Program-made: the position numbers and the translations under genes
Part shown: in pieces, positions 1 through 16,961 of the stretch
Layout: each line of letters starts with the position of its first letter
Position numbering within the stretch: the stretch's first letter is position 1
The notes under the pieces: generated by a model
What the model was told of the DNA's origin: nothing
Database searches by the model: none
What the model saw: only the letters and a program-made list of their open reading frames with translations
Virus record (IMG/VR): IMGVR_UViG_2526164666_000046
DNA: 26,551 nt
Strand: one strand, 5' to 3'
Source: a virus
Lineage: Duplodnaviria > Heunggongvirae > Uroviricota > Caudoviricetes

Positions 1-90
1 CCCACCGCTGACGTGGTGTATGACACACCCGTTGTGATTTTTCCATCTGGTACATACCCCGTCTCCCGTTATCCGGAAGCTGACAACAAT

Positions 91-119
91 AAAAAAGCCA
101 CCAGTTAACTACTGATGGC
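91..119 (-). terminator. Putative rho-independent terminator downstream of the small late-region genes
   Basis: Minus-strand hairpin GCCATCAG-(7 nt)-CTGGTGGC (one wobble pair) at plus 97-119, followed immediately by U6 (plus A-run 91-96); lies 13 nt past the stop of the 132..404 gene. Confidence 0.4.
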
Positions 120-131
120 CCTGACTCCCCG

Positions 132-404
132 TTACAGCATCATGACCGATTCGGGTTGAGGTTCAGTCGCATCGGCGACCGGTGATTCAGGCTGAACTTC
201 ACCGCTCTCTGCGGTGGTATCTCCCGCTTCAGTCGGTGGCTCTGCCTGTACACCAAGCAGCTCATCCAGAATGGCATCAACCTCTGCATCAAGACGCGCT
301 TCCAGGTTATGGCGAAGTTTTTGTTCAGTTGCGCTCCGGACTTCTTCAGAGCGCAGGACTTCCTTCACTGCTTCAGCAGTGACCAGGGATGTAATTTCTG
401 ACAT
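132..404 (-). CDS. Small acidic hypothetical protein (90 aa, MSEITSLVTAEAVKEVLRSEEV...), lambdoid late-region accessory protein
   Basis: ATG at 404-402 inside the 132..578 track ORF; the upstream 58 codons of the track ORF overlap the neighbouring gene and look non-coding. Acidic Pro/Glu-rich C-terminus. No family assigned. Confidence 0.5.
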   Translation of the reverse strand: MSEITSLVTAEAVKEVLRSEEVRSATEQKLRHNLEARLDAEVDAILDELLGVQAEPPTEAGDTTAESGEVQPESPVADATEPQPESVMML

Positions 405-444
405 GGGATTTTCTCGTCGAAAGATGTGATTAAGAAAGTTGCCG

Positions 445-624
445 CTAAATGAGCGGCTCTTCGGGTTTGCTTCCGGCTGACTGACTGGCGCTGATTTTCT
501 CAGCGGCCCTTTTTGCAATCTGTCTGCGCCAGACGTCACGCATGGCCCGGTATCCACCCGAGAGGAGATACAGCACACAGACCACCGTACAGAAGTACAG
601 CATTAACTGGTTCAGAAATGTCAT
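445..624 (-). CDS. Small single-pass membrane protein (59 aa, MTFLNQLMLYFCTVVCVLYLLSGG...)
   Basis: Below the 60-aa cutoff of the ORF track; ATG at 624-622 with GGAAAG 8 nt upstream, stop TAG at 447-445; one hydrophobic helix followed by a basic tail. Function unknown. Confidence 0.4.
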   Translation of the reverse strand: MTFLNQLMLYFCTVVCVLYLLSGGYRAMRDVWRRQIAKRAAEKISASQSAGSKPEEPLI

Positions 625-722
625 AATTTCTTTCCGTTATTGTTGACAATAAGAACTGTTTTCATTAAAAAACCAGAGTACGAAAGTATCGTTCCTTTAT
701 TTTTTCTCCATAGGTATCACCA

Positions 723-758
723 CCGCCAGCGTCCATTCCTGTCGCTGGCGGTTTTTTT
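723..758 (+). terminator. Strong plus-strand intrinsic terminator (9-bp GC stem + T7) in a minus-strand intergenic gap
   Basis: CCGCCAGCG (723-731) / loop 732-742 / CGCTGGCGG (743-751) followed by TTTTTTT (752-758). Not usable as a minus-strand terminator (no U-tract on that side). Confidence 0.5.
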
Positions 759-759
759 A

Positions 760-1446
760 TCATGCCGCAGTGTCTGTGCTGTTCACTTCCACCGCAATGC
801 TGTCTATCAGTACCGGGTAAGTCGCACCTCTGGTAATGTCTGTCACATGCAGTTTATCCGCCGCAAAGGCACTGACCGGTGACTGCGTCAGCGTGAACGG
901 TGTGCCAACCTGACCATCAATAACCGGCGTCACCTGAAGGCTGTTATTCCCGGCAAAGCGGAAAGCCAGCGTATGCCATTCGTTATCAAATGCGCCAAAG
1001 GTTCCCAGTTTCAGGTTGTTTGTCGCCACTTTCGCATTGTGGTACATCACATTCAGGTCTTTTGCATCTGTCTGGATGTAGAACGCTGCCAGCAGGTTAT
1101 TCCCCCCGTCTCCGGTCAGGGCAACGCCCTGTGGCAGTGAAGATACCGGCCAGTAAAACGCCATAACATACTGGTTCGCAGCCAGCGCTCCCGAAACCTT
1201 AAAGCGGCAGCGAATCTGCCCCCCTTTCTGTAACAGAGCCGCACCGTTGCCCGCGGCGTACTCCAGCACCCAGCTGCTTTTACCGGCTTCCTTGGTCAGC
1301 TTCACTGCCTTACCTCCGGTTCCCTCCGCATCGCTGACCACTTCTGCCCTGCCGCCACTGGCTGACCATCCCTGTACTTTCAGGCTTCCCTCTGACTCGC
1401 TGGCAAGGTAAGAGAGCAGTGCTCGCGACGCCTGTGGCTTCTGCAC
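760..1446 (-). CDS. C-terminal domain ORF (228 aa), probably the displaced 3' portion of the upstream esterase gene; possible carbohydrate-binding domain
   Basis: Open frame with no ATG (the track 'M' is GTG; first internal Met near residue 94); overlaps the esterase frame by 67 nt; Gly/Ala/Thr-rich beta-type composition. The two-piece layout fits a frameshifted long esterase gene. Confidence 0.45.
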   Translation of the reverse strand: MQKPQASRALLSYLASESEGSLKVQGWSASGGRAEVVSDAEGTGGKAVKLTKEAGKSSWVLEYAAGNGAALLQKGGQIRCRFKVSGALAANQYVMAFYWPVSSLPQGVALTGDGGNNLLAAFYIQTDAKDLNVMYHNAKVATNNLKLGTFGAFDNEWHTLAFRFAGNNSLQVTPVIDGQVGTPFTLTQSPVSAFAADKLHVTDITRGATYPVLIDSIAVEVNSTDTAA

Positions 1447-2699
1447 CGGAAGGCGATGACGGGCGCACCTCTGATACTGTCGATGATGCCCCCGCGTTTA
1501 GCGCCACTCTTCCCGCATGGCGCAAAATCGCCGTTGCCAGGACGGCCGGAAATAATCCCGCGGCGAGCCCATGAACTGAAATGGCTCGCCCTGTCCTGTG
1601 ACGTCCAGGTGGCTGAGCTGTCACGCCATTTCGAACCGTAATATCCGATACCCGGAATGTCCGGGTCTTCTTCCGGTTTGTTCGTCGGCACATTCACCCC
1701 GTTCTCATCCGTCATGAACGGTACGAAATGGATATTCTTTTCCGTTTTGTTTTTGTAGCTGCCGTACACCGTCTGGTACGAGGATTCGTTCTTCTGCTTC
1801 CAGAAATACGTCGTATCTCCACATATCCAGGGAACACCGCCAGCAGAGCCACCGACGCACTGACCTGCCATATCCGCCAGGTCTGCACGGAATTTATCAA
1901 CCAGCGCACCAAACTGTGCTGCGTGATTTACCGGCGTACCGCCAAAATCAAATTCCCCCTGCATCCACACCACGGCAAACAGCACATTTTTCGGGTTCTT
2001 CTTCAGTGCTGCTTTTGTTCGACCGATAAGGTCCTTATACAGCGGCTTGTCCACACCCCAGCGGGTTGAATTCTCCGAGGCACCACTCGCGTCACTGTAT
2101 GTGCCATCGGCTCCGGTGGTGAACGCTGAACCACCACGACAGCACGGAACCAGCAGAATGCCCGCATTCGCCGGTATAAACGGCAGCAATTTTTTGGCGA
2201 TATGCAGCCCTTGCCCCACGGTTCCGTACTGCCCCTTTGACAGGTCCGCTTTCGGATGGTTAAGGCGGCTCATGTCCTGCACATCATGCAGACAATGGTC
2301 CGCCGGAATGATGTCGTTATATTTGCATGCTGCACCGCCCGGTGTCACCGTACTGCGGCGCGCCAGCTGCTTAATACGCGGGTCCGGACGGTCATATGTC
2401 TCCGGCAGCGGAAGGCCTTCACCATATGCCATGCTGTTTGACTGCCCCGCCAGAACCACAACAAAGTAATACTCCGTGTCTCTGGTGGCGCTGATTACTG
2501 TGCCTTCTCCATCCGACGGCTTCACCAACACAGGTGTGGTGACATCACCTTCCGCCGCAATGGCCTGCATCAGAGTATAAGGCGTGATGGCCACCGGACT
2601 ACCAAACGGCTGCCAGCCCTCTTTCAGTTTGTGTGTCAGCTTTTCCGCAAGGTCTGACGGCGACGCCGCCCTGACAACATCATAATGTTTAATCGACAT
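1380..2699 (-). CDS. DUF1737 + SGNH-type esterase, NanS-p-like sialate O-acetylesterase (prophage late-region accessory gene)
   Basis: ATG at 2699-2697 (MSIKHYDVVRAASPSDLAEKLTHKLKEGWQPFGSPV, DUF1737-like N-terminus) with GGGAG 8 nt upstream; esterase block VVVLAGQSNSMAYG (GQSN catalytic-Ser motif). The last ~80 codons (R/C-rich) look out of frame. Family assignment from memory of prophage NanS-p proteins. Confidence 0.65.
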   Translation of the reverse strand: MSIKHYDVVRAASPSDLAEKLTHKLKEGWQPFGSPVAITPYTLMQAIAAEGDVTTPVLVKPSDGEGTVISATRDTEYYFVVVLAGQSNSMAYGEGLPLPETYDRPDPRIKQLARRSTVTPGGAACKYNDIIPADHCLHDVQDMSRLNHPKADLSKGQYGTVGQGLHIAKKLLPFIPANAGILLVPCCRGGSAFTTGADGTYSDASGASENSTRWGVDKPLYKDLIGRTKAALKKNPKNVLFAVVWMQGEFDFGGTPVNHAAQFGALVDKFRADLADMAGQCVGGSAGGVPWICGDTTYFWKQKNESSYQTVYGSYKNKTEKNIHFVPFMTDENGVNVPTNKPEEDPDIPGIGYYGSKWRDSSATWTSQDRASHFSSWARRGIISGRPGNGDFAPCGKSGAKRGGIIDSIRGAPVIAFRCRSHRRREHCSLTLPASQREA

Positions 2700-2925
2700 C
2701 GAATTTCTCCCGTGTACAGGAACAGAGTTAAAAAGCGGAACCGGAATCAAATTACAGGATGGCCATCTGCCAGTGGCTGGTCGTAAAAAAAAGGCCAACG
2801 CCATGCGCAGCCGGAAATAAAGGGATAACGATGATAGTTTGAGAAAAACAGAAACAACACTTTTGTGGCAAAGCATGGTGCCGGGTGCCTCCCGGTGAAT
2901 TCAGTATCAGCACCTGAATCCGCGA

Positions 2926-3577
2926 TTATCCCATATACCTGGTTGCTGATCGCCCCTCCGCACAGGGGGATTCACCATGCAGTAGTATTTTTAATAAACA
3001 GTAAACAAAAAAATCAAGCATTATGCAGGCTGTTTCTTTTATCACCGGCCACAGCAATACCACAATGCCGCAGACCAGCACCCCATCCGCCAGCACCGAC
3101 ATGATTCTGCTGGTGAAATCCACCATCACCACCAGAAACAGCAGGAGTGCAGCCACAGCCAGGCGCAGTTTTACCGCACAGGTGATTCTCCAGACGAAGA
3201 CCCAGAACACCGGCAATCTCTTCCAGCACCTTGCGCTCTTCCGGCTCAATTTCGCCGTCTGCCTCCGCAATGGCCACCGCCACATCCAGCACATCTTCCG
3301 CTTCACGCGTATCGTGTTTCACATCCTCGATCTCACGTAACGCCGCACGACGTACCATTTAAGTTCGTATCCAGCTGACCGATAATGGTTGCGCTAATCG
3401 CATTAATTTCTGACGTAAACGCGGACAGCGCAGGCTGATTACGCAGTACCTGTTCGATCTTCGCTTTCTAGGAAGCCTCACATTCACCATCTGCACAGGC
3501 CACCAGGTAGGCAGCATTAATAACCGCCTGTGCCAGATCGCGTTTCTCAAACTTTCCTTTTTCCGGTTAACATGACA
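2926..3577 (-). pseudogene. Decayed TerB-domain (tellurite-resistance TerB-like) gene followed by a hydrophobic segment
   Basis: TerB-like sequence is split over three frames: ...KGKFEKRDLAQAVINAAYLVACADGECEAS, in-frame TAG (plus 3468-3470), KAKIEQVLRNQPALSAFTSEINAISATIIGQLDTN, frameshift near 3340-3358, VRRAALREIEDVKHDTREAEDVLDVAVAIAEADGEIEPEERKVLEEIAGVLGLRLEN, then another shift into a transmembrane-like stretch (2926..3306 ORF). No intact start codon. Confidence 0.5.
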
Positions 3578-3671
3578 TACCAATAACTCTTGTCTAAAAA
3601 GCCAGCAAGATAAAAAGCCAGTATTCACGACCACCAGCGTGTTTACTGTACTGCACAAGGTTTACAGGTAC

Positions 3672-3689
3672 AAAAAAACCGCTCAGCGG
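3672..3689 (-). terminator. Putative minus-strand intrinsic terminator (candidate tR'-like site)
   Basis: Minus strand reads CCGC-TGA-GCGG followed by U7 (plus A-run 3672-3678). Short stem, so low confidence. Confidence 0.35.
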
Positions 3690-3814
3690 CGGGTTTAAGT
3701 TGTGTGGCGAAGTAACCACTCTTAACACGATATAATACTTTTTGCGTACGCGTTAGGATTTTTATAAACTATGCGTCCCCATTCTCGCTATCTTTAGTCG
3801 GTCCTGGAATACAC

Positions 3815-4261
3815 ATGAAAGTTAGAAGCATAGGATTTACAATAAATAACAATAACAAAAATATTAATACCGTTGACGTAATGAATGCTTTTATCAACGC
3901 ATCAAACAGAGAACACAGTCGCACAGACTATACTCGTAAAATTCTCATTTCGGATGTGAATGATTTCTATTATGGATTAGTTGTCACATTCAGAAACCAA
4001 AAAAAGAACTGTAAGTCGCAATTTGTTGATGGTAAATTCCAGCTTAAAATTGAAGATCTTCAAGGAAGTGACAAACTTGCTAATTTCAACTTTTTCTTAA
4101 TTAAAAAATCTAATCTTTCTGGTCTCTATATGTATCACCACGGTTCATGCAGTCTGAACACTCTCTTTTCTCATTTAGAAACAATAAGTAATGAATTTAT
4201 CAGAAATCAAAATAAAGAAGAAATAAAAAACTTGGTGATAAACCAAAACAAAAAGAAGTAA
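3815..4261 (+). CDS. Hypothetical protein (148 aa), first gene of the AT-rich Q-proximal cargo cassette
   Basis: Very AT-rich ORF with Asn/Lys-rich composition; TATAAT-like box about 80 nt upstream. Its frame and the next ORF's frame are both open across an A6 run (4225-4230), so this may be the N-terminal part of a ~270-aa protein. Confidence 0.45.
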   Translation: MKVRSIGFTINNNNKNINTVDVMNAFINASNREHSRTDYTRKILISDVNDFYYGLVVTFRNQKKNCKSQFVDGKFQLKIEDLQGSDKLANFNFFLIKKSNLSGLYMYHHGSCSLNTLFSHLETISNEFIRNQNKEEIKNLVINQNKKK

Positions 4262-4305
4262 CTGCAATAAATAAAAAATACAAAGAAAGACTGACTTTCA
4301 GCCTT

Positions 4306-4629
4306 ATGACAAATAAAAACAACATTCAGAGTGTTTTATGTCAATTCAAAGAGATTAAAAGCACAAGCTTTAAATTTAATTATATAGATTTTAAAGGTGG
4401 ACCAATGACTGCGCTTGAACAATTTGTTAACACCACCACAATAGATATGAATTTTAATTCTAGCGACAGAACAAAAGTGCAACAACTATCTCAGAATCTT
4501 TCAAATATTTATAATTCTATGAGTGGAGTTGCTAAAGCACAGGTTATTGCAGTAAACCATGCAGGAATAGAAAAAACCATTGATTTTATGAACTGCCCTG
4601 TTTTTTTGAAACATACGATTTCGATATAA
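4306..4629 (+). CDS. Hypothetical protein (107 aa), possibly the C-terminal part of the preceding gene
   Basis: Weak RBS; its frame is open upstream to 4216 and overlaps the end of the 3815..4261 frame. Same composition as its neighbours. Confidence 0.4.
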   Translation: MTNKNNIQSVLCQFKEIKSTSFKFNYIDFKGGPMTALEQFVNTTTIDMNFNSSDRTKVQQLSQNLSNIYNSMSGVAKAQVIAVNHAGIEKTIDFMNCPVFLKHTISI

Positions 4630-4725
4630 TTGCCGATAAAGTCAATGGATTGACAAACGATAATTATACAACAAACCCTGTTTTTGATATGATAAAAGAA
4701 GAAATGCTGAACGGGACGAATAAAA

Positions 4726-5274
4726 ATGCCTTTATATGAATGGCTAATAAATAAAAGATTGAGGTATCAGTACCTTACACTGCTTGCATTCTCGATCCTG
4801 GCATTGCTTGCACTTTACCTATTGTACAGAAACACACCTAAAGTAAGTGTTAACTTTTTTGAGTTTTATCATAAAAACTTACGAGGCTATCTCTTCTCCG
4901 GTTTTATTTCCGTGGGCTCATTTTTATTGAGCCTGCATACCTTTGTCATAATAAATTTACGCGATAAGGTTTTTGCAACTCAGGAATATAAGGAAATTTA
5001 TAGCATTGCCACTGGTATACCTATTGACAAAATCAATGATAGTGTACTTTATAAACCTTTAGACAATTTATCCTCATTTATTAATACATCAATATTATGT
5101 TCTATCACAACAGCAATTGCACAATTCACTATTGGACTTTCAACTAATTTATATGCATGCTTATTTTGCGTATGGCTTGCAATACTAACGGTATTTCTTT
5201 TATTACATTGCCTCATCATAATCAGACAAAATATTAAAATTTTATTAAAGCAACAGAGAAAAAAAGGGGGGTAA
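4726..5274 (+). CDS. Four-helix integral membrane protein (182 aa), last gene of the cargo cassette
   Basis: Four hydrophobic segments (YQYLTLLAFSILALLALYLLY; LFSGFISVGSFLLSLHTFVII; ILCSITTAIAQFTIGL; LYACLFCVWLAILTVFLLLHCLIII) and a basic C-tail; stop lies in the loop of the hairpin at 5266-5281. Confidence 0.55.
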   Translation: MPLYEWLINKRLRYQYLTLLAFSILALLALYLLYRNTPKVSVNFFEFYHKNLRGYLFSGFISVGSFLLSLHTFVIINLRDKVFATQEYKEIYSIATGIPIDKINDSVLYKPLDNLSSFINTSILCSITTAIAQFTIGLSTNLYACLFCVWLAILTVFLLLHCLIIIRQNIKILLKQQRKKGG

Positions 5275-5288
5275 TTCCCCCTAATATT
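5262..5288. terminator. Bidirectional hairpin terminator between the convergent membrane-protein gene and Q
   Basis: GGGGGG (5266-5271) / TAATT / CCCCC (5277-5281), flanked by an A-run on the plus side (5259-5265), which gives U7 on the minus strand directly after Q. Confidence 0.5.
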
Positions 5289-5628
5289 ACAACATTGAAA
5301 GCACACCATCCAGAAAACCAAGAGCTGTTTGCAACTCTTTTCTTATTGTCCCATCAGAACACTTCTGCTTCTTTGCAATAGTTCTTAGTGAGATGCCGAT
5401 AACAAAATGAGCAATAACCAACTCATACTCTTCGGGCTTATATTTCCGCAATCGCGCAACACAGCTGTCAATCATGATTCCTTCATCATCATCGCATTGT
5501 TGGCGTGTTTTCTTTCCATGAGGTAGTAAACCTTTAAACCCTGCAGCAACAGGCTGCCAGTCCACACCACTGTTATCTGCTGCAGCCCATGCACCCCAGC
5601 GGTCCAATACTTCATACATATCACGCAT
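5287..5628 (-). CDS. Late-gene antiterminator Q (Phage_antitermQ family, QuuD-like)
   Basis: MRDMYEVLDRWGAWAA...VDWQPVAAGFKGLLP...QQCDDDEGIMIDSCVARL...IAHFVIGISLRTIAKKQKCSDGTIRKELQTALGFLDGVLSML closely parallels the remembered E. coli QuuD sequence. Start taken at the ATG at 5628; the track ORF offers 5643 as an alternative. Confidence 0.8.
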   Translation of the reverse strand: MRDMYEVLDRWGAWAAADNSGVDWQPVAAGFKGLLPHGKKTRQQCDDDEGIMIDSCVARLRKYKPEEYELVIAHFVIGISLRTIAKKQKCSDGTIRKELQTALGFLDGVLSML

Positions 5629-5645
5629 CAACTTTCTCCACAAAA

Positions 5646-6641
5646 TCAGGCCAGCACGCCAATTGCCAGTGCACGATCGATAAAACGAAATATCAGCTCC
5701 AGCTGGGAGCCATACTTCTCTTCAAATGCCACGGTATCCGCATGCAGCTCGTCGTGATGCTTTCTGCACAAAGGCAACACAAAGAGGTCATGCGCTTTTG
5801 TAGCCATTCCACCCTGACCGTGACCTATCAGGTGGTGGGGATCATCAGCAGGTTTTCCACAACATGCGCACGGCTGCGTCTTAACCCATCGCGTGTACTT
5901 TTCATTAACCCAGCGGCGACGTTTTGGGCGTAACATAAAAGACTCCGGCGACTCCGGATCCACTTTCAGCGCCAGCACCTTTTTCGCTTTATCCTGGATG
6001 ATGCTGGTGGCAGGAACCGAAGGCACAAGGTCACTTTCCCGGGTGACAGACGGCACAACAGGCTTCGGTAATCTCAGTACCTTACGGGCTGCACTTTCCG
6101 GTAAGGCATCCGCCAGATCATTACGAATCAGCCACCAGCACAGTTCCGGCATTGTCACAACGTGACTGTCATCAAAACCGAGATCCCGACGCACGACAGA
6201 CAACACCCAGCGGGCACAGTTATCCGTTGCCATTGATTCCAGCCGTTCCGTGAACTGATCGCGCAGCTGGTTATCGCAGTGCCAGCACAGACGGATTGCG
6301 CCCGGCGCGTGTCGCATTGTGGTCATGTTCTCGCTGTGCCAGTCGGAATGAGGCCACTGGCAGCCTTTTTCACGAAGTAACCAGCTTTCAAGACATTCCA
6401 CGCCACCAGCACGACGGATCACTGCCTCATTGCGGAACACGGCCCGAACGGCAGGATCATCCGCCAGCGGTTGTGATGCCGCCGGAACGGCACCACTGGC
6501 GAAAGATGAATAACGTTCCGGCTCAGGCTCCAGCAGGACACGCCCCTGCATAAACAGGGGCATCAGCTCTGAACCTGGCCTGAACAATACGATCCCCATA
6601 CGCGGGGCAATTTCAGGGGTCAGTAGCGCTCTCACGGTCAC
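5646..6641 (-). CDS. DUF968-family phage protein (YdfU-like) with HNH-like Cys/His cluster
   Basis: C-terminal QPCACCGKPADDPHHLIGHGQGG...LPLCRKHHDELH motif pattern; position just upstream of Q as in Qin-type prophages. Start uncertain (GTG 6641/6635 or ATG 6599). Confidence 0.6.
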   Translation of the reverse strand: MTVRALLTPEIAPRMGIVLFRPGSELMPLFMQGRVLLEPEPERYSSFASGAVPAASQPLADDPAVRAVFRNEAVIRRAGGVECLESWLLREKGCQWPHSDWHSENMTTMRHAPGAIRLCWHCDNQLRDQFTERLESMATDNCARWVLSVVRRDLGFDDSHVVTMPELCWWLIRNDLADALPESAARKVLRLPKPVVPSVTRESDLVPSVPATSIIQDKAKKVLALKVDPESPESFMLRPKRRRWVNEKYTRWVKTQPCACCGKPADDPHHLIGHGQGGMATKAHDLFVLPLCRKHHDELHADTVAFEEKYGSQLELIFRFIDRALAIGVLA

Positions 6642-6642
6642 C

Positions 6643-7440
6643 TCAATGAACGGTATCGAGCAGCTTTAACAGCTCAGGGAACCGGGATTCGAAGAAATGC
6701 GGCTGCGTCTCGCGCGGATTTGCGGGACTGGTGATGTTCTTGCCGAACATGCAGCCTTTCGCCGTCAGCGACCAGAATTTTTTGATGTTGTTAATCGCAG
6801 TGCGGCTGTATCGTTCACGTTGTTCAACGATCCCCAGCTTCGCCATCTGGTGATATGCCTGATTAGCTGTCAGGCGGATACCATACTGCTTCAGCAGTGC
6901 ACTCAGTGACAGCGTGGGGCGGCTTGAGCCATCAGGCGCGTCAGCAGGAGCATCAATGGCATAGCGCGGTGCCAGATTCGGTAAGCCAACAGCCTCCTGG
7001 AGTTTCTGACAGGCTCCAAGCACTGATGAGTTAGACAGGTTTAATTCCCGGCGCATAAAGTCCAGCAGGATCACACCAGCCTGCATCTTGTCAGCAGCCT
7101 GTCCGGATAATTTTTCCGGTGCGCTGGTTACCATGTCGAAAGTACGGATCACCTTCAGATGGAATGACGGGCTGATCCACATTGCATAGGCATACACCAG
7201 TTCTTTGCAGACATACGTCCCCTGGCTATTTCCGCCACGAATAACGTTAACTGGCTCTATATTGACCGAGTTGCAAATCTGCAACTCGCTTATTAAACGT
7301 TCAGTTTGCTCATTGCGGAGCCAGAATGCAGGCTTATGCTTATCCAGAGAACCGGCAGCCCTGTGCAAATCGTTCAGGCTGTAACGACCATAAGCATCAC
7401 GACGAACTTCAATACCATCAATGACCATCAGATTATTCAT
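6643..7440 (-). CDS. KilA-N domain phage protein
   Basis: MNNLMVIDGIEVRRDAYGRYSLNDLHRAAGSLDKHKPAFWLRNEQTERLISEL fits the KilA-N N-terminal pattern as I remember it; ATG at 7440 with GAGGAG-type RBS. Confidence 0.55.
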   Translation of the reverse strand: MNNLMVIDGIEVRRDAYGRYSLNDLHRAAGSLDKHKPAFWLRNEQTERLISELQICNSVNIEPVNVIRGGNSQGTYVCKELVYAYAMWISPSFHLKVIRTFDMVTSAPEKLSGQAADKMQAGVILLDFMRRELNLSNSSVLGACQKLQEAVGLPNLAPRYAIDAPADAPDGSSRPTLSLSALLKQYGIRLTANQAYHQMAKLGIVEQRERYSRTAINNIKKFWSLTAKGCMFGKNITSPANPRETQPHFFESRFPELLKLLDTVH

Positions 7441-7459
7441 ACTTCGTTTCTCCTCTTGA

Positions 7460-7849
7460 TCAGGCGGCTGCACCCGCCGTTTTCTCGTACTTACTGATAG
7501 TGATCTCGACCTTCCCTTTCGGGATAACCGGTCCCCACTCCACCAGCATTCTTTTCACCTGTCTGTCGTCTTCCCACACACCCGCGTGGGTCAGGGCGTC
7601 AAACAGCGCCTTGTTATAGTTGTCCAGATCGCGGATCCGGTTATCCGGAGGAAACAACACGATCTCCACTGAAGCAGGTGCCGACGTTGGTTTCGGCAGA
7701 CGACGTAACTGCTCAACTATTGCTGCGCATGCCGCGCTCTGGAATTTGCGCCCCGCTGCGCTTATCAGACTCTTACCAGCAAACGCCCCTTTGTTGGGGT
7801 GTCGCCAGTACGTGTTCACGCTGGGCGGGAAAGGCAGGATCAGCTTCAT
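7460..7849 (-). CDS. rusA: Holliday-junction resolvase RusA
   Basis: MKLILPFPPSVNTYWRH...RDLDNYNKALFDALTHAGVWEDDRQV matches the RusA signature (PPS.N.Y; D.DN; FDAL). Start ATG overlaps the upstream stop (ATGA). Confidence 0.85.
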   Translation of the reverse strand: MKLILPFPPSVNTYWRHPNKGAFAGKSLISAAGRKFQSAACAAIVEQLRRLPKPTSAPASVEIVLFPPDNRIRDLDNYNKALFDALTHAGVWEDDRQVKRMLVEWGPVIPKGKVEITISKYEKTAGAAA

Positions 7850-8172
7850 ACTTTCAGGCCTCTCTCATGTAACCAGTGGGTTGCACGCAGCTTTGCGTTT
7901 TCCTCACCGGCAAGCAGTGAGCGGATAATCCCGACAGCCTCGCTGTCGTCGTCCTTCACCGCGGTATGAAGCGTTATCCCCCGGGCCACGCCACGCTTTA
8001 TCGTGATGACGCCTTTTTTCTCCAGTGCGCGAAGATGCTCCACCGCTGCATTCACTGAACGGTATCCCAGCATGGTTGCCACCTCCTGATTGGTTGGCGG
8101 GAAGCCTCGTTCTTTCTGGTAAGAAATCAGCATATCCAGCACCTGCTGCTGGCATTGAGTTAATGTCGTCAT
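7846..8172 (-). CDS. LexA-N-terminal-like winged-helix DNA-binding protein (108 aa)
   Basis: LTQCQQQVLDMLISYQKERGFPPTNQEVATMLGYRSVNAAVEHLRALEKKGVITI resembles the LexA DNA-binding domain; no S24 peptidase domain. Translationally coupled to its neighbours. Confidence 0.6.
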   Translation of the reverse strand: MTTLTQCQQQVLDMLISYQKERGFPPTNQEVATMLGYRSVNAAVEHLRALEKKGVITIKRGVARGITLHTAVKDDDSEAVGIIRSLLAGEENAKLRATHWLHERGLKV

Positions 8173-8822
8173 GCCGCCATCTCCCTGACCAGTTTTTCCG
8201 CCTGCTGGCGAACCTGCGCCAGAAAGGCCTCACCACATGCCTCAAGTTCATCGCGCCCGATGTAGCTGATTGCCGGTCCCTTCCAGGTCTTGTCGAAAAC
8301 AGCAATAGCACCAGCGAAGAAAGCTCCTGTCGGCACCTGCTTCTCGTCCTTCGGTATAAACCAGGCAGGCAGTTCAAAACCAATACGCCCGCGAATAAAA
8401 GCAATATGATCTGCATCTTCCGGCCACCACACTTCGCTGGTGGCAGCTTTGATCAGGAAAACATAGCGCCCGCCTTTATCACGCATGGCACTGGCATGTT
8501 TCATGATGTAACGCATGCCGGTAATGTATTGCCCCTCATGCTGACTGGCACGGCTGTATGGGGGATTACCAAAGGCAGCACCTTTAAGCTCCGCAAGACG
8601 TTCTGACCAGTCGTGCGCCAGCGCGTTGTCTTCCGCCGTGTAATACGCGGCACATTTGGCGTTATCACCGTCAGTAAACAGATCCAGAACAAACGGGCCA
8701 AACAGGGTGTTCATTCCCCAGAAAATGTTGTCCGGCGTGCGCCACTGATCGCCCACTTCCTTCAGTTCATGGGCTGGTTTGTTCCGCAGTTCCACCAGCT
8801 CCTGGCAATATTTATTACTCAT
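8169..8822 (-). CDS. Phage N6-adenine DNA methyltransferase (Dam-type, orphan)
   Basis: AAFGNPPYS (NPPY catalytic motif); start at Met12 of the track ORF (8822), overlapping the upstream stop by 1 nt (TAATG). Confidence 0.8.
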   Translation of the reverse strand: MSNKYCQELVELRNKPAHELKEVGDQWRTPDNIFWGMNTLFGPFVLDLFTDGDNAKCAAYYTAEDNALAHDWSERLAELKGAAFGNPPYSRASQHEGQYITGMRYIMKHASAMRDKGGRYVFLIKAATSEVWWPEDADHIAFIRGRIGFELPAWFIPKDEKQVPTGAFFAGAIAVFDKTWKGPAISYIGRDELEACGEAFLAQVRQQAEKLVREMAA

Positions 8823-9316
8823 TAAGCCCCCACGTAATTCCCTGACAGATACCACTCATCACCCGATGCAGCGCGCTTGCTGCTTTTCCGTAAGCACCGC
8901 TCACGACGCGCCAGAAAATTGTTTCGTTCTGGCTGGGAGTGGCTTTCACGGAATGCCGACATCCACACGGTTGCAGCACGACGGTATAAGCCCCTGGACT
9001 CCAGTTCTTCAGCCTGGCGGGTCAGGCACAAAATCACCCGGGGATCGTTAGTGCCGACATAGAAATTGCGCACAGGTCTGGTTTCTCGAACTGGTTGTGG
9101 TTCCGGCTCCTGCGCTCTCTCAGTCAGGCGCGGGAAATGTCTGCGTGTATCTCCTTCACAACGGTGAGCCACACGCCCACTCTGACGTAACTTGCTTGCA
9201 GACTGCAGAACGCGCTGCCGTGAGTAACCTGTAAAAGCATCTGCAATGTCTCCGGAAGTACACCCCGGATGGGCTTCAATGAATTTCTGAACTTCATTCA
9301 AAAGACTCATAATCAC
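8822..9316 (-). CDS. Hypothetical phage protein with winged-helix-like N-terminus and PerC/ANR-like C-terminal motif
   Basis: N-terminus MSLLNEVQKFIEAHPGCTSGDIADAFTGYSRQRVLQSASKLRQSGRV; C-terminal AATVWMSAFRESHSQPERNNFLARRERC resembles the ANR/PerC pattern from memory. Low certainty. Confidence 0.4.
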   Translation of the reverse strand: MIMSLLNEVQKFIEAHPGCTSGDIADAFTGYSRQRVLQSASKLRQSGRVAHRCEGDTRRHFPRLTERAQEPEPQPVRETRPVRNFYVGTNDPRVILCLTRQAEELESRGLYRRAATVWMSAFRESHSQPERNNFLARRERCLRKSSKRAASGDEWYLSGNYVGA

Positions 9317-10131
9317 CCCCTGAATCCTGCCGGGATCTGGCTGTAGTCCACGTTGTCGTAACTGGCTTTGAAGTACGGGTCCTCGCGTCTGGCTGCAGAT
9401 ACCGCAGGAACTTCCCAGGGTTCTTCGAAATGACGATCCGGGCCAAAGAACGTGACAGCCTGTTTCACAAATTGTGTGCCGCTGTTACCCATCGCAGATA
9501 CCCAGCCCGCGTAGCGTTTCACACCTTCCAGCATGGTTTCGGGGTTTACCCCCTCATTCAAACGGGCTTTCCAGGCTTTGAAGGCTGCAGATTTTGAATT
9601 GCCACCAGCACGTTTGGGATATACCAGCCATGCCTGCTCAAACTCCGAAGAGTATTCCGGTCGGTTTGAACGAACTCGCACGGACTCATCAACTGATGCA
9701 CCAACAGCTATTGGTTCTTTGACTGGTTCTTTGACTGGTTCAAAAGAGTGACTGGTTCTGGGTGAATCTCCTGCACTACCCCCTGGTGCAACTCCTGCAC
9801 TACCTGGTGAATTTGCTGCACCAGATAGTGAATTATTTGCACTACCCCCTAGTGAATCTCCTGCACCATCCAGATGAAGGAGATAGATATTACTTGAGTT
9901 ACCTTTTTCACCTTTCCGGGTGACTTTTTTTACCAGCCCGGACTCACAAAGGGCCGCAATATGATTCATCACAGAACGTTTGCTAATCTCGCACTGGTCA
10001 GCAATATGCTGGTAGCTGGGCCAGCACTCACCCTGATCGCTGGCATTATCAGCCAGCTTGATCAGAACCAGTTTTCGCAATGGATTACCCACTCGAATTT
10101 TCATCGCTTTAACCATCAGCTCCATACTCAT
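9313..10131 (-). CDS. Replication initiator (lambda O-like) with N-terminal HTH and internal iteron-encoding linker
   Basis: N-terminal IRVGNPLRKLVLIKLADNASDQGECWPSYQHIADQCEISKRSVMNHIAALCESGLV (HTH); Gly/Ser/Ala/Pro-rich linker with EPVKEPVKEP encoded by direct DNA repeats; lies between the immunity region and nin-type genes. Exact start uncertain (10131/10125/10116). Confidence 0.6.
   Translation of the reverse strand: MSMELMVKAMKIRVGNPLRKLVLIKLADNASDQGECWPSYQHIADQCEISKRSVMNHIAALCESGLVKKVTRKGEKGNSSNIYLLHLDGAGDSLGGSANNSLSGAANSPGSAGVAPGGSAGDSPRTSHSFEPVKEPVKEPIAVGASVDESVRVRSNRPEYSSEFEQAWLVYPKRAGGNSKSAAFKAWKARLNEGVNPETMLEGVKRYAGWVSAMGNSGTQFVKQAVTFFGPDRHFEEPWEVPAVSAARREDPYFKASYDNVDYSQIPAGFRG
9712..9870. 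repeat. Iteron cluster / putative prophage origin of replication inside the O-like gene
   Basis: TGGTTCTTTGAC x2 (9712-9735); four ~20-bp iteron-like copies GGTGAATCTCCTGCACTACC (9761), GGTGAATTTGCTGCACCAGA (9806), AGTGAATTATTTGCACTACC (9827), AGTGAATCTCCTGCACCATC (9851). Confidence 0.5.
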
Positions 10132-10364
10132 GCTGCACCTCCGAGATGCTTCATGTTTTTTCCGGAGCAAAAGGCTATAAGCGGCATACTGACGCGGTAA
10201 TTACGGCCCAGCGGTTCACAAATCACCTTCTGACATTCACGGTCCACCAGGCTAACACGTAGAACATGCCCTGCAGGCGTGGTGTACCACTGCCCAACTG
10301 TAGGAATTGATGTTTTTTTACGCTGAAATAAACGGTAAATGTTGAGGATCAACGGATTAAGCAT
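10128..10364 (-). CDS. Hypothetical small phage protein (78 aa)
   Basis: ORF translationally coupled between the 278-aa gene and the O-like gene; no recognisable motif. Confidence 0.3.
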   Translation of the reverse strand: MLNPLILNIYRLFQRKKTSIPTVGQWYTTPAGHVLRVSLVDRECQKVICEPLGRNYRVSMPLIAFCSGKNMKHLGGAA

Positions 10365-11193
10365 GACGATGCCCTCCGCTGATATTCAGGAGACGGTGAA
10401 TATGAAAATTAGCCTTATCCGCCAGACGAATACGTTCAGCCTGCAAGTTAAGAAGGGTTTCTACCAGAACCTGATGCGCCTGCGGATCCGAAAGAGTTAC
10501 CTTGCGCAGAGCACGTAGTGCAGTTGTTACATAACTGAGTTTATGTAAGTCTTCATCATTCAGACGAGTGAGGGCTGGGGCAGTAGCCATGATGGCAGCC
10601 TCCTTGATCGGTGAAATACTTCCACCACCGGAAACGCCAATTTCGCTGGTGGTGAACTGAACGGGGTTGGCGTAACCGGTGATCAAGGAAACCGGCGCAT
10701 CTTTCGATGCCCCCGCCCAGCCCACCATAACTTTGATGTGAGCAAATGCGGACGATAAAAAAGACGCTGGCGCGTCATATATCGCCTTGATCAATTCCAG
10801 GACGCCAATCCCGGCACCCGCTTTATAAGGTGCCTGAACAGTGTAACGTCCCGGAATGGCAGAATCAATGTGCTGGTGGTCCTTCACACTCAACAAAATC
10901 ACGCCTGAATTTCCACAAAGGACTAAAGCACTCATGCGGGTAGTCTTTGCGAAGATAGATAACGCGCTGTGTTTCTGGCTCCCAACGAATAACATGGACA
11001 TAAAGCCCTCTTCCGTCACGAAACCAGCGGTTAAGTTCCTGCACAACTCGCCCCCCACAGTCAGGTAAAGTTCTCTGTGGTTACTTACAGCCAGGTGATT
11101 TGGTAATCTGCATTCATGCCGTAACAACAGGTGTTCAGCGACACTGACCACCAGCTGTTGCGACAAACGGTTATTTGCCGTTAAACTGTTCAT
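10357..11193 (-). CDS. Hypothetical early-region protein (278 aa), unknown function
   Basis: Long ORF in operon position between the YdaT-like gene and replication genes; GVSGGGS motif but no Walker A box; not assignable by eye. Confidence 0.45.
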   Translation of the reverse strand: MNSLTANNRLSQQLVVSVAEHLLLRHECRLPNHLAVSNHRELYLTVGGELCRNLTAGFVTEEGFMSMLFVGSQKHSALSIFAKTTRMSALVLCGNSGVILLSVKDHQHIDSAIPGRYTVQAPYKAGAGIGVLELIKAIYDAPASFLSSAFAHIKVMVGWAGASKDAPVSLITGYANPVQFTTSEIGVSGGGSISPIKEAAIMATAPALTRLNDEDLHKLSYVTTALRALRKVTLSDPQAHQVLVETLLNLQAERIRLADKANFHIHRLLNISGGHRHA

Positions 11194-11753
11194 GCGTTAG
11201 TTTCTCCACAGACACAAAACGCCACGACGCCCGGAGCTGCACACTCGCGGGCGTCACTCTTTTCTGGAGCGCAAAAGATTTTGTAGACCAGTGCTGCATG
11301 CTCCTGGAGCTTCGAAATTGACAGATACAACTCATCATTAATTGCTGTCTGCTCGTGTGGCTCCACGACCCCATCTTCGATTGCCGAACGAATCTGCTTT
11401 GAGTAATTCCCGATCTGTTCGATGACTTCCAGCAGGCGCTGGTTTATATCGGCGTTCTCTACTTCCTCAATTTCAGGAAGCGATACGAACACCCCACCAG
11501 CAGACTGTGCGACAGCATCCGCAATGTAGTGAGTGCCAGCCGCGCGCTGTAAAACCATTGCCCATCCCAGCGGGAAAATCTGATCGCCATCGGCACGAAG
11601 GCGGTTAAATAATGCGTTCTCTGTTACATCCAGCCAGTCAGCTGCTTCAGCGTAACCACCCGGCAACGCTGCGATAGTTTTTCTGACAGCTTTCACGTAC
11701 CACTCAGGCTGTTTTTCTACTTTCCAGTGATACTTACCCACGGTTAGCCTCAT
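11190..11753 (-). CDS. Early regulatory protein, YdaT/CII-like by position (187 aa)
   Basis: Immediately downstream of the Cro-like gene as in Rac-type immunity regions; assignment is positional, not motif-based. Confidence 0.4.
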   Translation of the reverse strand: MRLTVGKYHWKVEKQPEWYVKAVRKTIAALPGGYAEAADWLDVTENALFNRLRADGDQIFPLGWAMVLQRAAGTHYIADAVAQSAGGVFVSLPEIEEVENADINQRLLEVIEQIGNYSKQIRSAIEDGVVEPHEQTAINDELYLSISKLQEHAALVYKIFCAPEKSDARECAAPGVVAFCVCGETNA

Positions 11754-11784
11754 CGTTCTGTGGTTAAAAATTGAAGGTGTTCTG

Positions 11785-11985
11785 TTAATCTTTCGGATAG
11801 ATATCCGGTCTTAAGTCAGATTTCGTAATTGCACCTGACGTGCATTGCTCAAGTTTTTTAGCCAGCACAAAACTGGCTTTTTTATAACCATTGAAAACCA
11901 GCCGTAAGTAGCCTGGTGTTGAGCCAACTTTTCCGGCCAACTCGCCCTGCTGTTCTTTGGTTAAAGAGTCCCAATACGCTTTCAT
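11785..11985 (-). CDS. Cro-like repressor (YdaS/DUF1019-type HTH)
   Basis: MKAYWDSLTKEQQGELAGKVGSTPGYLRLVFNGYKKASFVLAKKLEQCTSGAI; ATG at 11985 with GGAGGT 9 nt upstream; divergent from cI across an operator region. Confidence 0.6.
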   Translation of the reverse strand: MKAYWDSLTKEQQGELAGKVGSTPGYLRLVFNGYKKASFVLAKKLEQCTSGAITKSDLRPDIYPKD

Positions 11986-12075
11986 ACAATATGTACCTCC
12001 AATATACATATTACATGATTAATATGAACCTTCAAGATACTTGTACCTTATCGGTACAAAGGTTTTAATTTCTTT
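11986..12075. promoter_or_regulatory. OR-type divergent promoter/operator region between cro-like and cI
   Basis: Perfect inverted repeat TTGTACC-TTATC-GGTACAA (12041-12059) plus extra ATGTACC / GATAC half-sites; the same half-sites recur at the pL-like promoter. Confidence 0.55.
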
Positions 12076-12750
12076 ATGAAAACAGTCCATGACATCCGGC
12101 GGTCTAACGCCAGAAAACTGAGAGATGGTGTTGGCGGGAATTCTTCCTTTGCCACCATGATTGATCGCGAGCCAACCCAGACCAGCAGGTTTATGGGAGA
12201 TGGTGCTACTAAAAATATCGGTGACAGCATGGCACGGCACATCGAAAAATGTTTCGACCTGCCTGTCGGATGGCTTGATCAAGAACACCAGACCACGAAC
12301 ATCACAAAAAAACCTGATGTTTCAATCACTAACAAACAAATAACGTTAGTCCCTGTCATATCATGGGTACAGGCCGGAGCATGGAAAGAAGTTGGCTATT
12401 CTGAGGTTGATTTGAGCACAGCAGAAACTTATCCCTGCCCTGTACCCTGTGGCGAAATGACTTATATCTTGCGGGTGATTGGTGATTCAATGATTGATGA
12501 GTACCGCCCGGGAGACATGATTTTTGTTGATCCCGAAGTCCCTGCCTGCCACGGTGACGACGTTATTGCATTGATGCACGATACAGGCGAAACCACCTTC
12601 AAGCGATTGATAGAAGATGGAACACAGCGTTATCTCAAAGCATTAAACCCAAACTGGCCTGAGCCTTACATTAAGATTAACGGTAATTGCTCTATAATTG
12701 GTACAGTAATTTTCTCAGGAAAACCAAGAAGATACAAAATAAAGGCCTAA
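12076..12750 (+). CDS. CI-type prophage repressor (XRE HTH + S24 LexA-like autopeptidase)
   Basis: N-terminal HTH-like segment ending DLPVGWLD; C-terminal S24 domain with catalytic Ser (RVIGDSMIDEY) and Lys (TTFKRLI), implying RecA-stimulated self-cleavage. Confidence 0.85.
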   Translation: MKTVHDIRRSNARKLRDGVGGNSSFATMIDREPTQTSRFMGDGATKNIGDSMARHIEKCFDLPVGWLDQEHQTTNITKKPDVSITNKQITLVPVISWVQAGAWKEVGYSEVDLSTAETYPCPVPCGEMTYILRVIGDSMIDEYRPGDMIFVDPEVPACHGDDVIALMHDTGETTFKRLIEDGTQRYLKALNPNWPEPYIKINGNCSIIGTVIFSGKPRRYKIKA

Positions 12751-12762
12751 TCAATATTTATA

Positions 12763-12784
12763 ACCTGCTTCGGCAGGTTTTTTA
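12763..12784 (+). terminator. Intrinsic terminator after cI
   Basis: ACCTGC-TTCG-GCAGGT hairpin with a UUCG tetraloop followed by a T6 run, 13 nt after the cI stop. Confidence 0.6.
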
Positions 12785-12787
12785 TAC

Positions 12788-12820
12788 TTGACAATGTACC
12801 CTTGAGATACATAATGTATC
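12788..12820 (+). promoter_or_regulatory. pL-like early-left promoter with operator half-sites
   Basis: TTGACA (12788-12793), 16-nt spacer, CATAAT (12810-12815); overlapped by ATGTACC-CTTGA-GATACAT and GATACA-TAA-TGTATC inverted repeats. Confidence 0.45.
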
Positions 12821-13231
12821 TAAAAGAAACATGCCGCAGGCAAGATTAAACAAAATTTGGTTGTAACACGGCGTATGGCACATGCGTCGTTAGCGGTCTG
12901 GGGACGTTAAAGGGGACAATCCACTCCTTGCTCGGGCAAAAAAACCAGGTAGCCGGAATGTGCAAGTCAATGATGATGCTGATAAGACGCCTAACCAGCG
13001 CGGCGATCCGGTTTGACGCCTGGGAAGAGACCAGGGTGCAACGATGAGGGCATTTATGGAACCGCGACAAAGTGTGGTGCCGTAACTTGCTAAGTGCTCT
13101 CAGCGTTGTGGTAATCCGCGAAATGGCGCGGCGGTAAGTATGGCGGGGTTACTCTTTCCCCGTTGAGGACACCGGATTGTCAGGTTGACCATACGCCTGA
13201 GTGACAACCCCACCACAACAGCCACTGCTTT

Positions 13232-13278
13232 GGCGGTACCAGTTTGTACACTTGCTTCCGGCTGGTACCGCTCTTTTT
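13232..13278 (+). terminator. Hairpin + T-tract (terminator or structured RNA element) in the long pL leader
   Basis: GGTACCAG (13235-13242) / 19-nt loop / CTGGTACC (13262-13269) followed by GCTCTTTTT (13270-13278). Confidence 0.4.
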
Positions 13279-13416
13279 ACAAAACAGAGAAGAGCATCAC
13301 CGGACGACGGGCTCATAACCCAATCCAGCCGGGCGGCTGCCACCGCAGGTGTTCTTCTCTGTTTTGTGGAGAAACCAACCGACCTTGCAGGGTCGATATG
13401 ATGAGGAGCAGCAAAA

Positions 13417-13778
13417 TGGCTAGCGAACGCAGTACTGATGTGCAGGCATTTATCGGGGAGCTGGACGGCGGCGTATTTGAAACCAAAATCGGCGCAGTTC
13501 TCAGTGAAGTCGCTTCCGGTGTGATGAACACGAAAACCAAAGGTAAGGTCTCGCTCAACCTGGAAATCGAACCGTTTGATGAGAACCGTGTGAAAATCAA
13601 ACACAAACTCTCATATGTTCGCCCGACTAACCGCGGGAAAATTTCCGAAGAAGACACCACCGAAACGCCGATGTATGTCAATCGCGGTGGTCGACTGACT
13701 ATTCTGCAGGAAGACCAGGGACAATTACTGACTCTTGCCGGTGAACCTGACGGAAAACTCCGCGCAGCAGGTCATTAA
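13417..13778 (+). CDS. Hypothetical early-left protein (120 aa)
   Basis: ATG at 13417 preceded by GAGGAG 7 nt upstream (MASERSTDVQAFIGELDGG...); the track ORF's 5' extension to 13185 lacks an RBS and crosses the hairpin. Confidence 0.45.
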
Positions 13779-13843
13779 TATCGTTCTTAATTAACTGATT
13801 ATTTATCTCATCACTGAATATCTTTATATAGTGAGGACTTATT

Positions 13844-14668: not shown

Positions 14669-14680
14669 TTTCATTACTGC

Positions 14681-14702
14681 AAATGCCCCTGCGGGGGCAT
14701 TT
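14681..14702 (+). terminator. Hairpin after the YfdQ-like gene (weak terminator)
   Basis: AAATGCCCC-TGCG-GGGGCATTT perfect inverted repeat; weak T-tract after it. Confidence 0.35.
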
Positions 14703-14796
14703 ATGGAAACGTAATTAACTCAATAATCACCGGATGGTGAGAGCTTCCTTTTAGCAGAATTCAGCGCGGTGCAGCGCATATAAAGTGGAGAACGAA

Positions 14797-16202: not shown

Positions 16203-16402
16203 CAATCGTAAAAACCCATACCGGTACCGTGATCACCAAAGATGGCCCGCAGGTAAAAAAATTGCACCAAACAGAGCGGATGTGGGTCGTTGGCAAAAAC
16301 GAGTTTTACCACAAAGAAACTGGACGCCGCCATTTTGCAGAAAATACGCGCCGCCGACTGCTGTTAGACACCATCAAGCCTATCGAGGTGAAGCATGTTT
16401 AA
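16199..16402 (+). CDS. Hypothetical small protein (67 aa)
   Basis: ATGA-coupled to the upstream gene; no motif recognised. Confidence 0.4.
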   Translation: MTIVKTHTGTVITKDGPQVKKLHQTERMWVVGKNEFYHKETGRRHFAENTRRRLLLDTIKPIEVKHV

Positions 16403-16960: not shown

Positions 16961-16961
16961 G

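Follow-up and report, generated by a model that had tools for sequence, protein, structure and literature searches.

Setting of the intergenic unit

The stretch of DNA analysed here (the window, 26,551 nucleotides in all) carries the late region of a lambdoid, Stx-phage-like prophage in reversed orientation, with the late operon on the minus strand. Positions 1-17671 are ~97% identical to Stx2c-converting phages, and a search of the whole window returned no stx genes and no tRNA genes; its source is a Stx-phage-like prophage that is devoid of the toxin cassette. In annotated homologous loci the gene order is an esterase of the SASA family (nanS-p-like), DUF1378, DUF826, holin, and lysozyme. 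An earlier reading of this DNA, made without database searches and referred to below as the sequence-only reading, had pointed to a gap between two minus-strand late genes, and this gap is indeed present: 135 bp separate the stop codon of the esterase gene (760-762) from the start of the DUF1378 open reading frame (624). Within it, on the plus strand, lie the elements of a candidate small RNA (sRNA) gene that is convergent with the late operon (Table 1).

Table 1. Coordinates of the features at the esterase-DUF1378 junction of the window
Feature	Position	Strand	Basis and remarks
SASA-family sialate O-acetylesterase gene (nanS-p-like)	760..2699	-	Annotation of homologous loci; stop codon abuts the sRNA terminator
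DUF1378 family protein gene	445..624	-	Open reading frame and annotation of homologous loci; start 19 bp from the sRNA -35 box
-35 hexamer TTGACA	643..648	+	TTGAC invariant in 18/18 aligned family members, including Esr41, PasA, and PasC
-10-like hexamer TAAAAA	666..671	+	17 bp after the -35 box; aligns with TTATAT of Esr41 and TCAGAA of PasA/PasC at equal spacing
Predicted sRNA, ~81 nt, Esr41-like paralogue	678..759	+	Predicted start at G678; 3' end in the U-run (~758)
Small predicted 5' hairpin, ACGA/UCGU	680..692	+	RNAfold; without covariation support, the weak part of the structure
Single-stranded U-rich stretch and anti-Shine-Dalgarno seed UUCUCCAU (704-711)	696..711	+	Unpaired in the predicted fold
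Rho-independent terminator, likely Hfq-binding 3' end	723..758	+	9-bp stem, 11-nt loop, U7

Several neighbouring features help to place the unit. Relative to the intact homologue of strain PV15-279, the esterase gene bears two 1-nt insertions (near 1541 and near 1424) that split it into open reading frames 1380-2876 and 760-1446; the split reflects either decay to a pseudogene or an error in sequencing. A match to STnc100 (RF02076, 103 bits) is located on the late strand at 2837-3009 (minus strand), just upstream of the esterase. Zhu, Shabalina and Storz (bioRxiv 2026) have described a phage layout in which PasD/STnc100 is followed by the esterase, PasA or PasC, and the holin and lysozyme genes; with STnc100 upstream of the esterase, as in the Pas loci, the window therefore reproduces this order of PasD/STnc100, esterase, convergent sRNA, and lysis genes. 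Between DUF826 (132-404) and the holin start, the late strand carries a 12-pair hairpin followed by a T-run (94-122, minus strand). Similar AAAAAAGCC(G/A)CCAG hairpins stand upstream of holin in prophages PP2 and PP5 of E2348/69, in Sp9 and Sp12 of Sakai, and in phage 2B8, and the hairpin of the window may serve as a terminator protecting the lysis genes in the absence of Q. Elsewhere in the window, a C4 antisense RNA (10645-10732, minus strand, 82 bits) adjoins an isrK Hfq-binding RNA (10757-10833, minus strand, 64 bits) in a side-by-side arrangement that resembles the antirepressor immunity module of the P1/P7 type.

Three characterized sRNAs provide the points of reference. Esr41, a validated sRNA that binds Hfq, pairs with the ribosome binding sites of chuA, cirA, and bfr and represses all three (PMC5286369, PMC9002310, PMC8065619); it is identical to EcOnc14 of E. 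coli O157:H7 Sakai and is among the strong Hfq-CRAC peaks reported by Tree et al. (2014). PasA (NC_011601.1, minus strand, 743499-743415) and PasC (minus strand, 1290909-1290832), from prophages PP2 and PP5 of EPEC E2348/69, are Hfq-dependent, validated by Northern blot, and supported by RIL-seq, and they rank among the accessory sRNAs of highest abundance in EPEC (Pearl Mizrahi et al. 2021, table S6 of PMC8550237). The EHEC homologues of PasA are EcOnc51/52 (Pearl Mizrahi et al. 2021).

Promoter signals and predicted start site

The TTGACA box had been noticed in the sequence-only reading and placed at 644-649, one base away from its true position. Taken alone, this hexamer is not significant against chance, the window containing nine copies on the plus strand and five on the minus strand where ~6.5 per strand are expected. 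The observation stands above chance because the promoter signals, and the unit as a whole, are conserved across the family, across genomes, and across phages. In an alignment of 18 diverged family members whose RNA bodies are largely unalignable, both TTGAC and A667, the second position of the -10 hexamer (the -11 A), are invariant.

A consensus promoter scan of positions 1-3000, in which -35 and -10 hexamers were required at a spacing of 16-18 bp, returned no promoter, and by this sigma-70 criterion the locus has none. The scan misses the locus because TAAAAA lacks the final T, the -35 box being perfect and the spacer 17 bp. This null result is not decisive, because the promoter of the validated Esr41 gene was likewise missed by the same scan. 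The Esr41 gene resembles the window in its TTGACA box, its 17-bp spacer, and an A/T-rich -10 element, which reads TTATAT in Esr41 and TAAAAA in the window. That the -10 element is weak, as the sequence-only reading had observed, is correct; weakness at this position is a trait of the family. It is no argument against function, because PasA and PasC possess the even poorer hexamer TCAGAA and are nevertheless abundant in EPEC.

The published or curated 5' ends of the three reference RNAs obey a common rule, each lying 35 nt past the first T of TTGACA. For Esr41 the 5' end is at 1048 of its locus (L006) and TTGACA begins at 1013; for PasC (locus L003) the corresponding positions are 2410 and 2445-2440, and for PasA (locus L002) they are 2600 and 2635-2630. 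The TTGACA box and the +35 start are thus shared by Esr41, PasA, and PasC, and by analogy the RNA of the window is predicted to start at G678 and to be ~81 nt long. A plus-strand transcript of ~90 nt, extending from TTGACA to the hairpin, had been proposed beforehand; the existence of a plus-strand unit is upheld by its homology to the Esr41 gene and its match to PasA and PasC, and the length is now refined to ~81 nt (678-758).

Predicted structure of the RNA and orientation of the terminator

The terminator is formed by the arms CCGCCAGCG (723-731) and CGCTGGCGG (743-751), which make a perfect 9-bp stem of eight G:C pairs and one A:T pair and are followed by T7 at 752-758. This is the GC hairpin with T7, oriented for the plus strand, of the sequence-only reading; RNAfold adds one pair, A722:U752. 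The 81-nt RNA (679-759) has a predicted folding energy of -22.8 kcal/mol (z = -5.0), and none of 200 shuffled sequences was as stable. Judged by this fold, the RNA has the parts of a class I Hfq sRNA, namely a 5' hairpin, a U-rich single strand (with UUUAUUUUUU predicted to be unpaired) that carries an anti-Shine-Dalgarno seed, and a terminator with a GC-rich stem of 9-10 bp and a U7 tail. Conservation of the hairpin extends to the related phage loci, since every variant ends in a GC-rich hairpin followed by U6-8, and in the predicted folds the UCUCCAU region is mostly unpaired. The corresponding TCTCCAT is kept in the window-type variants and in Esr41, and the 5' arm of the terminator, GCCAGCGTCC, is common to the window and PasC.

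A covariance model of the unit (R1) matches the window once, at 678-759, with 95 bits. In a covariation test on the terminator, 87% of the cells pair, and there are six double-change cells, a number reached by four of 500 shuffles; covariation is weak because the stem core CCGCCA/UGGCGG is nearly invariant. By eye, compensatory changes are apparent in the inner stem, with C:G replaced by U:A in two variants (L014 and L008) and G:C by A:U in Esr41 and PasA. One IMG/VR locus (L036) carries CGATGGCGG as its 3' arm instead of CGCTGGCGG, which breaks one stem pair and may mark this copy as decaying. The model also gives 17-27 bits to unrelated terminators that share the stem core, mostly on its terminator part, and the hairpin alone is therefore not diagnostic. 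For the same reason, the 25-bit matches of the model to loci of one variant type, V4, do not constitute proof of homology.

The hairpin might instead belong to the minus-strand late operon, as a terminator, an attenuator, or an mRNA-stabilising or REP-like element, with TTGACA a chance match; a REP-like or attenuating role had been named in the sequence-only reading as the alternative that would overturn its proposal. The hairpin does abut the esterase stop codon and also forms in the late mRNA (-25.6 kcal/mol), and the same stem core with a T-run is a generic terminator in many bacteria. The two strands are not equivalent, however. On the minus strand A7 precedes the hairpin and UGGUGAUACC follows it, and because a U-run is lacking there, the element can be a terminator for the plus strand only. 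Furthermore, all variants have their T-run on the plus strand, the hairpin is present in a single copy within the window, TTGAC is invariant in the family at a fixed distance, and the whole unit, promoter included, is homologous to the Esr41 gene. Strand asymmetry and single copy contradict a minus-strand terminator or REP-like element, and we regard assignment of the hairpin to the late operon as very improbable.

The gap could also encode a small protein, either in a minus-strand open reading frame of 32 aa (665-763), whose ATG overlaps the TGA of the esterase gene as ATGA, or in a plus-strand frame of 80 aa (640-882). Both frames exist. In the variants, the minus-strand frame shifts or meets stop codons after residue 4, and it was rejected as a candidate since it is not conserved among them. 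The plus-strand frame begins at a TTG within the -35 box, crosses the terminator, and is antisense to the esterase gene; as the only plus-strand frame, and one that runs through the hairpin, it agrees with the earlier remark that no credible plus-strand protein gene ends there. The probability that a small protein accounts for the locus is close to nil.

Homology to Esr41

Scanning Rfam, a step that the sequence-only reading had recommended, gave no match at the locus at the gathering threshold. A permissive scan of positions 400-1000 (601 nt) identified Esr41 (RF02676) as the best family, at 683-760, with 28.1 bits (E = 0.0031). The gathering score of the Esr41 family is 102 bits, and the true Esr41 locus in SpLE1 of Sakai scores 108.6 bits (L006 1048-1121); against the same threshold of 102, the window with 28.1 bits and two of its variants with ~24 bits (L013 and L012) fall outside curated Esr41 membership. 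Because of this difference of 28 bits against 102, the RNA of the window is a distant relative of Esr41 rather than a curated member of the family.

In the wider sense the two genes are homologous over their full length, -35 box and terminator included. When an nhmmer profile was made from window-type variants alone, with Esr41 left out, it retrieved the Esr41 locus at L006 1013-1118 over profile positions 1-113 (E = 2.8e-5; 57 kb searched). The similarity includes the promoter, which lies outside the Rfam model and reads TTGACAAcgctAACTaTTTTtAaTTAtAtA in the Esr41 locus and TTGACAAtaagAACTgTTTTcAtTAAaAaA in the window, and it runs on through UUUUCUCCAU-GG-UAU, the CCGCC(A/G)GC...GCUGGCG hairpin, and UUUUUUUAUCA. 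BLAST and tblastx comparisons of the Esr41 flanks with the window detected no similarity outside the sRNA gene.

The two RNAs share a 5' hairpin, a single-stranded region that is U-rich and contains UUCUCCAU, the CCGCC(A/G)GC...GCUGGCG hairpin, U7, and AUCA. They differ in that overall identity is ~60-65%, the window type reaching 24-28 bits on the Rfam model, in the pairing of the 5' hairpin (GAUGC/GCAUC in Esr41, ACGA/UCGU in the window), and in the continuation of the seed, which is AUGGGG in Esr41 and AUAGG in the window. They also differ in location: Esr41 resides in SpLE1 with no late operon opposite, whereas the unit of the window is embedded in a phage late operon beside the esterase gene.

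Correspondence with PasA and PasC and comparison with other phage sRNAs

The unit matches PasA and PasC in position and architecture. It occupies the same slot, between the sialate esterase gene and the holin and lysozyme genes and in opposite orientation to them; PasA is situated between the esterase gene and the late gene that comes next and PasC immediately beyond the esterase stop codon, each in convergent orientation. The terminator of PasC (GCCAGCGUCC...CGCUGGC U7 AUUAUG) directly abuts the esterase stop codon, as does that of the window. In sequence the correspondence is confined to the -35 box and the terminator: nhmmer gives E ~3 for PasA and PasC, and neither their body nor their seed can be aligned with the RNA of the window. 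Unlike the seed of the window, the reported seed of PasA overlaps its own terminator stem, and the PasA and PasC gaps measure ~290-450 bp and lack DUF1378 and DUF826, compared with 135 bp in the window.

By BLAST, the criterion used by Zhu et al., the unit does not qualify as PasA or PasC. Because it falls outside both this definition and the Rfam threshold for Esr41, we file it as a diverged member of the Esr41/Pas kind. It is likely that positions 643-758 of the plus strand constitute an sRNA gene directed against the late operon, a diverged paralogue of Esr41 that occupies the PasA/PasC slot and that, by analogy, would act in trans with Hfq. An antisense or small RNA had been suspected here before; the small RNA is retained, while an antisense role would not be its primary one if it behaves like its trans-acting, Hfq-dependent relatives.

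The class, the position, and the likely mechanism of such RNAs have already been described; we found no paper, those on Esr41 homologues included, in which the variant of the window is named or tested. PasA or PasC queries in BLAST would not retrieve this variant. Zhu et al. (2026) note Esr41 cmscan hits near PasD, which evidently represent the window-type element, and report Pas genes in only 43 phage genomes. Phage 2B8 (NC_049952), their example for PasC, carries a PasC-type unit rather than one of the window type.

Convergent sRNA genes located downstream of the Q-antiterminated promoter PR' have been described in lambdoid prophages, as exemplified by AsxR (EcOnc02) and AgvB (EcOnc01) (Tree et al. 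2014). Like the predicted RNA of the window, these are short RNAs, antisense to the Q-antiterminated late transcript at moron sites, and they bind Hfq; the convergent PR' sRNAs also have related 3' regions and variable 5' regions, as the window family does. AsxR and AgvB differ from the unit of the window in their location directly 3' of stx or Q, in their length of 51-60 nt, and in their action as sponges for host sRNAs. The Rfam models of AgvB and AsxR have no match in the window at the gathering score.

In some phages the slot contains tandem convergent sRNA-like units (L002 2360-2480, minus strand; L007 4560-4690, plus strand; L009 331-403, plus strand). In PP2 of E2348/69, which carries PasA and a similar second unit, and in Sp12 of Sakai, the second unit abuts the esterase stop codon. 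The second unit of PP2 explains the 236-nt 'minor' read-through product of PasA that ends at 743264.

Distribution, variants, and published transcript surveys

Of 5,426 complete E. coli genomes, 929 carry the 141-nt unit, which occurs in them 2,012 times (median two per genome, up to seven) with 72-100% identity. A 401-nt query covering the unit matched 306 phage records, most of them Stx2a-, Stx1a-, Stx2c-, and other Stx-converting phages, compared with the 43 phage genomes in which Zhu et al. report Pas genes. The window type is the commonest occupant of the PasA/PasC slot in sequenced Stx phages. Among 80 IMG/VR loci fetched by way of the esterase C-terminus, a convergent unit directly follows the esterase stop codon in all but one, the exception being a truncated contig. 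Several body types occur on the common chassis, including the window type, V3 (TTGACT, seed GAUUCUCCAUGAAUC), V4, and a type with a long terminator (TTGACA, 17 bp, TAGAAA). A strict pattern of seed plus hairpin had no matches in 185,579 species-representative genomes, which is consistent with an accessory, strain-variable element; a looser pattern comprising only the hairpin returned unrelated generic terminators and was dropped as a measure of distribution.

In addition to Esr41 in SpLE1, the Sakai genome (NC_002695.2) possesses two window-type copies, one in Sp5 (Stx2; L004 6087-6168, minus strand; genome position ~1272086-1272167, minus strand) and one in Sp15 (Stx1; L217 6086-6167, plus strand; ~2922085-2922166, plus strand). 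The Sp5 and Sp15 copies are not among the 63 sRNA candidates derived from Hfq-CRAC by Tree et al. (2014). Peaks passed that screen only if they were antisense to a coding sequence or lay >100 bp from the nearest one, and the absence may reflect this filter because the gap is only 135 bp. EcOnc10/11/12 proved to lie beyond Rz, and EcOnc51/52 are of the PasA type. In the part of the RNase E-CLASH supplements of Waters et al. (2017) available to us, no hybrids with ECs1209, ECs1210, or ECs1211 are listed, and the ECs1207 hybrids given there map to the 5' end of the esterase gene, away from the sRNA locus. Sy et al. (2020) make no mention of the locus in their text. In published data sets, reads from the seed and terminator regions common to the Sp5, Sp15, and SpLE1 loci could cross-map.

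These surveys bear on whether the unit might be a silent or decaying copy of an Esr41-type gene, with a weakened -10 element and little or no expression, that is merely carried along with the esterase-lysis module. The loss of the final T in TAAAAA, as compared with TTATAT of Esr41, would fit such a copy, as would the lack of an EcOnc peak at Sp5 or Sp15 when Esr41 (EcOnc14) gives a strong one, and the broken terminator arm of L036 is what decay would produce. On the other hand, variants from hundreds of phages and genomes, at 72-100% identity, all preserve TTGAC, the -11 A, the seed, and the terminator, PasA and PasC are abundant Hfq-dependent RNAs in spite of their even poorer -10 hexamers, and the filter of Tree et al. 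probably excluded an RNA in a 135-bp gap. We therefore consider a silent copy unlikely, though it deserves more weight than a coding or late-operon function of the hairpin. The favoured reading is that of a functional sRNA gene, and by analogy with Esr41, PasA, and PasC the variant of the window would be expressed and would depend on Hfq.

Discussion

The organization of the unit suggests how it might operate. A sigma-70 promoter (TTGACA, 17 bp, TAAAAA) would initiate the RNA at approximately G678, and the GC-rich hairpin with U7 would stop transcription at approximately 758. The resulting RNA of ~81 nt would begin with a short hairpin, continue as a U-rich single strand that closes with UUCUCCAU, and finish in a poly-U terminator of the type bound by Hfq. 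By analogy to Esr41 and the Pas RNAs, it would act in trans with Hfq, and its seed, which contains CUCC, would block translation of host mRNAs such as chuA (AUGGAGAA) through pairing at the Shine-Dalgarno sequence and the translation start; mRNAs with ribosome binding sites resembling AUGGAGA would be the likely targets.

The case of chuA illustrates how far the analogy with Esr41 may reach. The chuA leader of Sakai contains CCUCAUGGAGAA, with all 12 nt of which UUCUCCAUGGGG of Esr41 pairs. The RNA of the window keeps the 8-nt core UUCUCCAU, the complement of AUGGAGAA from the ribosome binding site of chuA, and then mismatches; its seed continues with AUAGG instead of AUGGGG, and the predicted pairing with chuA consequently shrinks from 12 bp to 8 bp. 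For chuA, the one target computed, the predicted duplex has an energy of -16.8 kcal/mol, matched by ~5% of 300 shuffles, as compared with -25.3 kcal/mol for Esr41. The target set of the window RNA would overlap that of Esr41 and would probably not be identical to it.

A different possibility is that the unit serves chiefly in cis and not on host mRNAs. The convergent promoter and RNA could interfere with transcription of the late operon or pair with the late transcript, for instance to direct RNase III cleavage between the esterase and lysis genes or to dampen leak-through into the lysis cassette in lysogens. In favour of this, the RNA can pair without a mismatch with the late mRNA from the esterase stop codon to the DUF1378 leader, the slot immediately upstream of the lysis genes is kept even when the RNA body is swapped, and some phages carry tandem units. 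Against a principal role in cis, Esr41, PasA, and PasC have many trans targets in CLASH and RIL-seq, Esr41 sits in SpLE1 where no late operon opposes it, the conserved part of the RNA is a typical anti-Shine-Dalgarno seed, and the RNA does not reach the ribosome binding site of DUF1378. The two modes are mutually compatible in any case. Given the complementarity to the late transcript, mutual titration or RNase III processing might produce an effect in cis upon induction; that cis action is its main function appears distinctly unlikely. Regulation in trans remains the reading that we prefer.

A broader interpretation can be offered tentatively, and we hold it to be possible rather than probable. 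In lambdoid and Stx phages, the esterase-lysis junction may serve as a conserved site for sRNA cassettes that combine a fixed chassis with exchangeable bodies and seeds. The chassis would consist of TTGAC(A/T), 17 bp, an A-rich -10 element, a +35 start, and a terminator of the GCCAGC type placed directly against the esterase stop codon. Esr41, PasA, PasC, the window type, and at least three further variants (V3, V4, and the L082 type) would then belong to a single superfamily, the Esr41 gene of SpLE1 would represent a phage cassette that has escaped, and the window type would confer Esr41-like repression of host mRNAs for haem, siderophore, and colicin receptors.

Stx phages are the vehicles of Shiga toxin, and the Stx-phage sRNAs AsxR, AgvB, and StxS rewire iron and haem use, stress responses, and virulence of the host. 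Set against this background the gain is incremental: the unit is a real and fairly ordinary feature, the dominant uncharacterized variant in Stx phages, which was missed both by BLAST surveys for PasA and PasC and by the curated Rfam threshold for Esr41, and it joins Esr41 to the PasA/PasC slot. If the RNA is expressed and shares chuA, cirA, and bfr as targets, Esr41-type regulation would be carried by the Stx phages themselves and not only by SpLE1, and about one complete E. coli genome in six would possess it. The unit would also provide an evolutionary link between Esr41 and the Pas RNAs.
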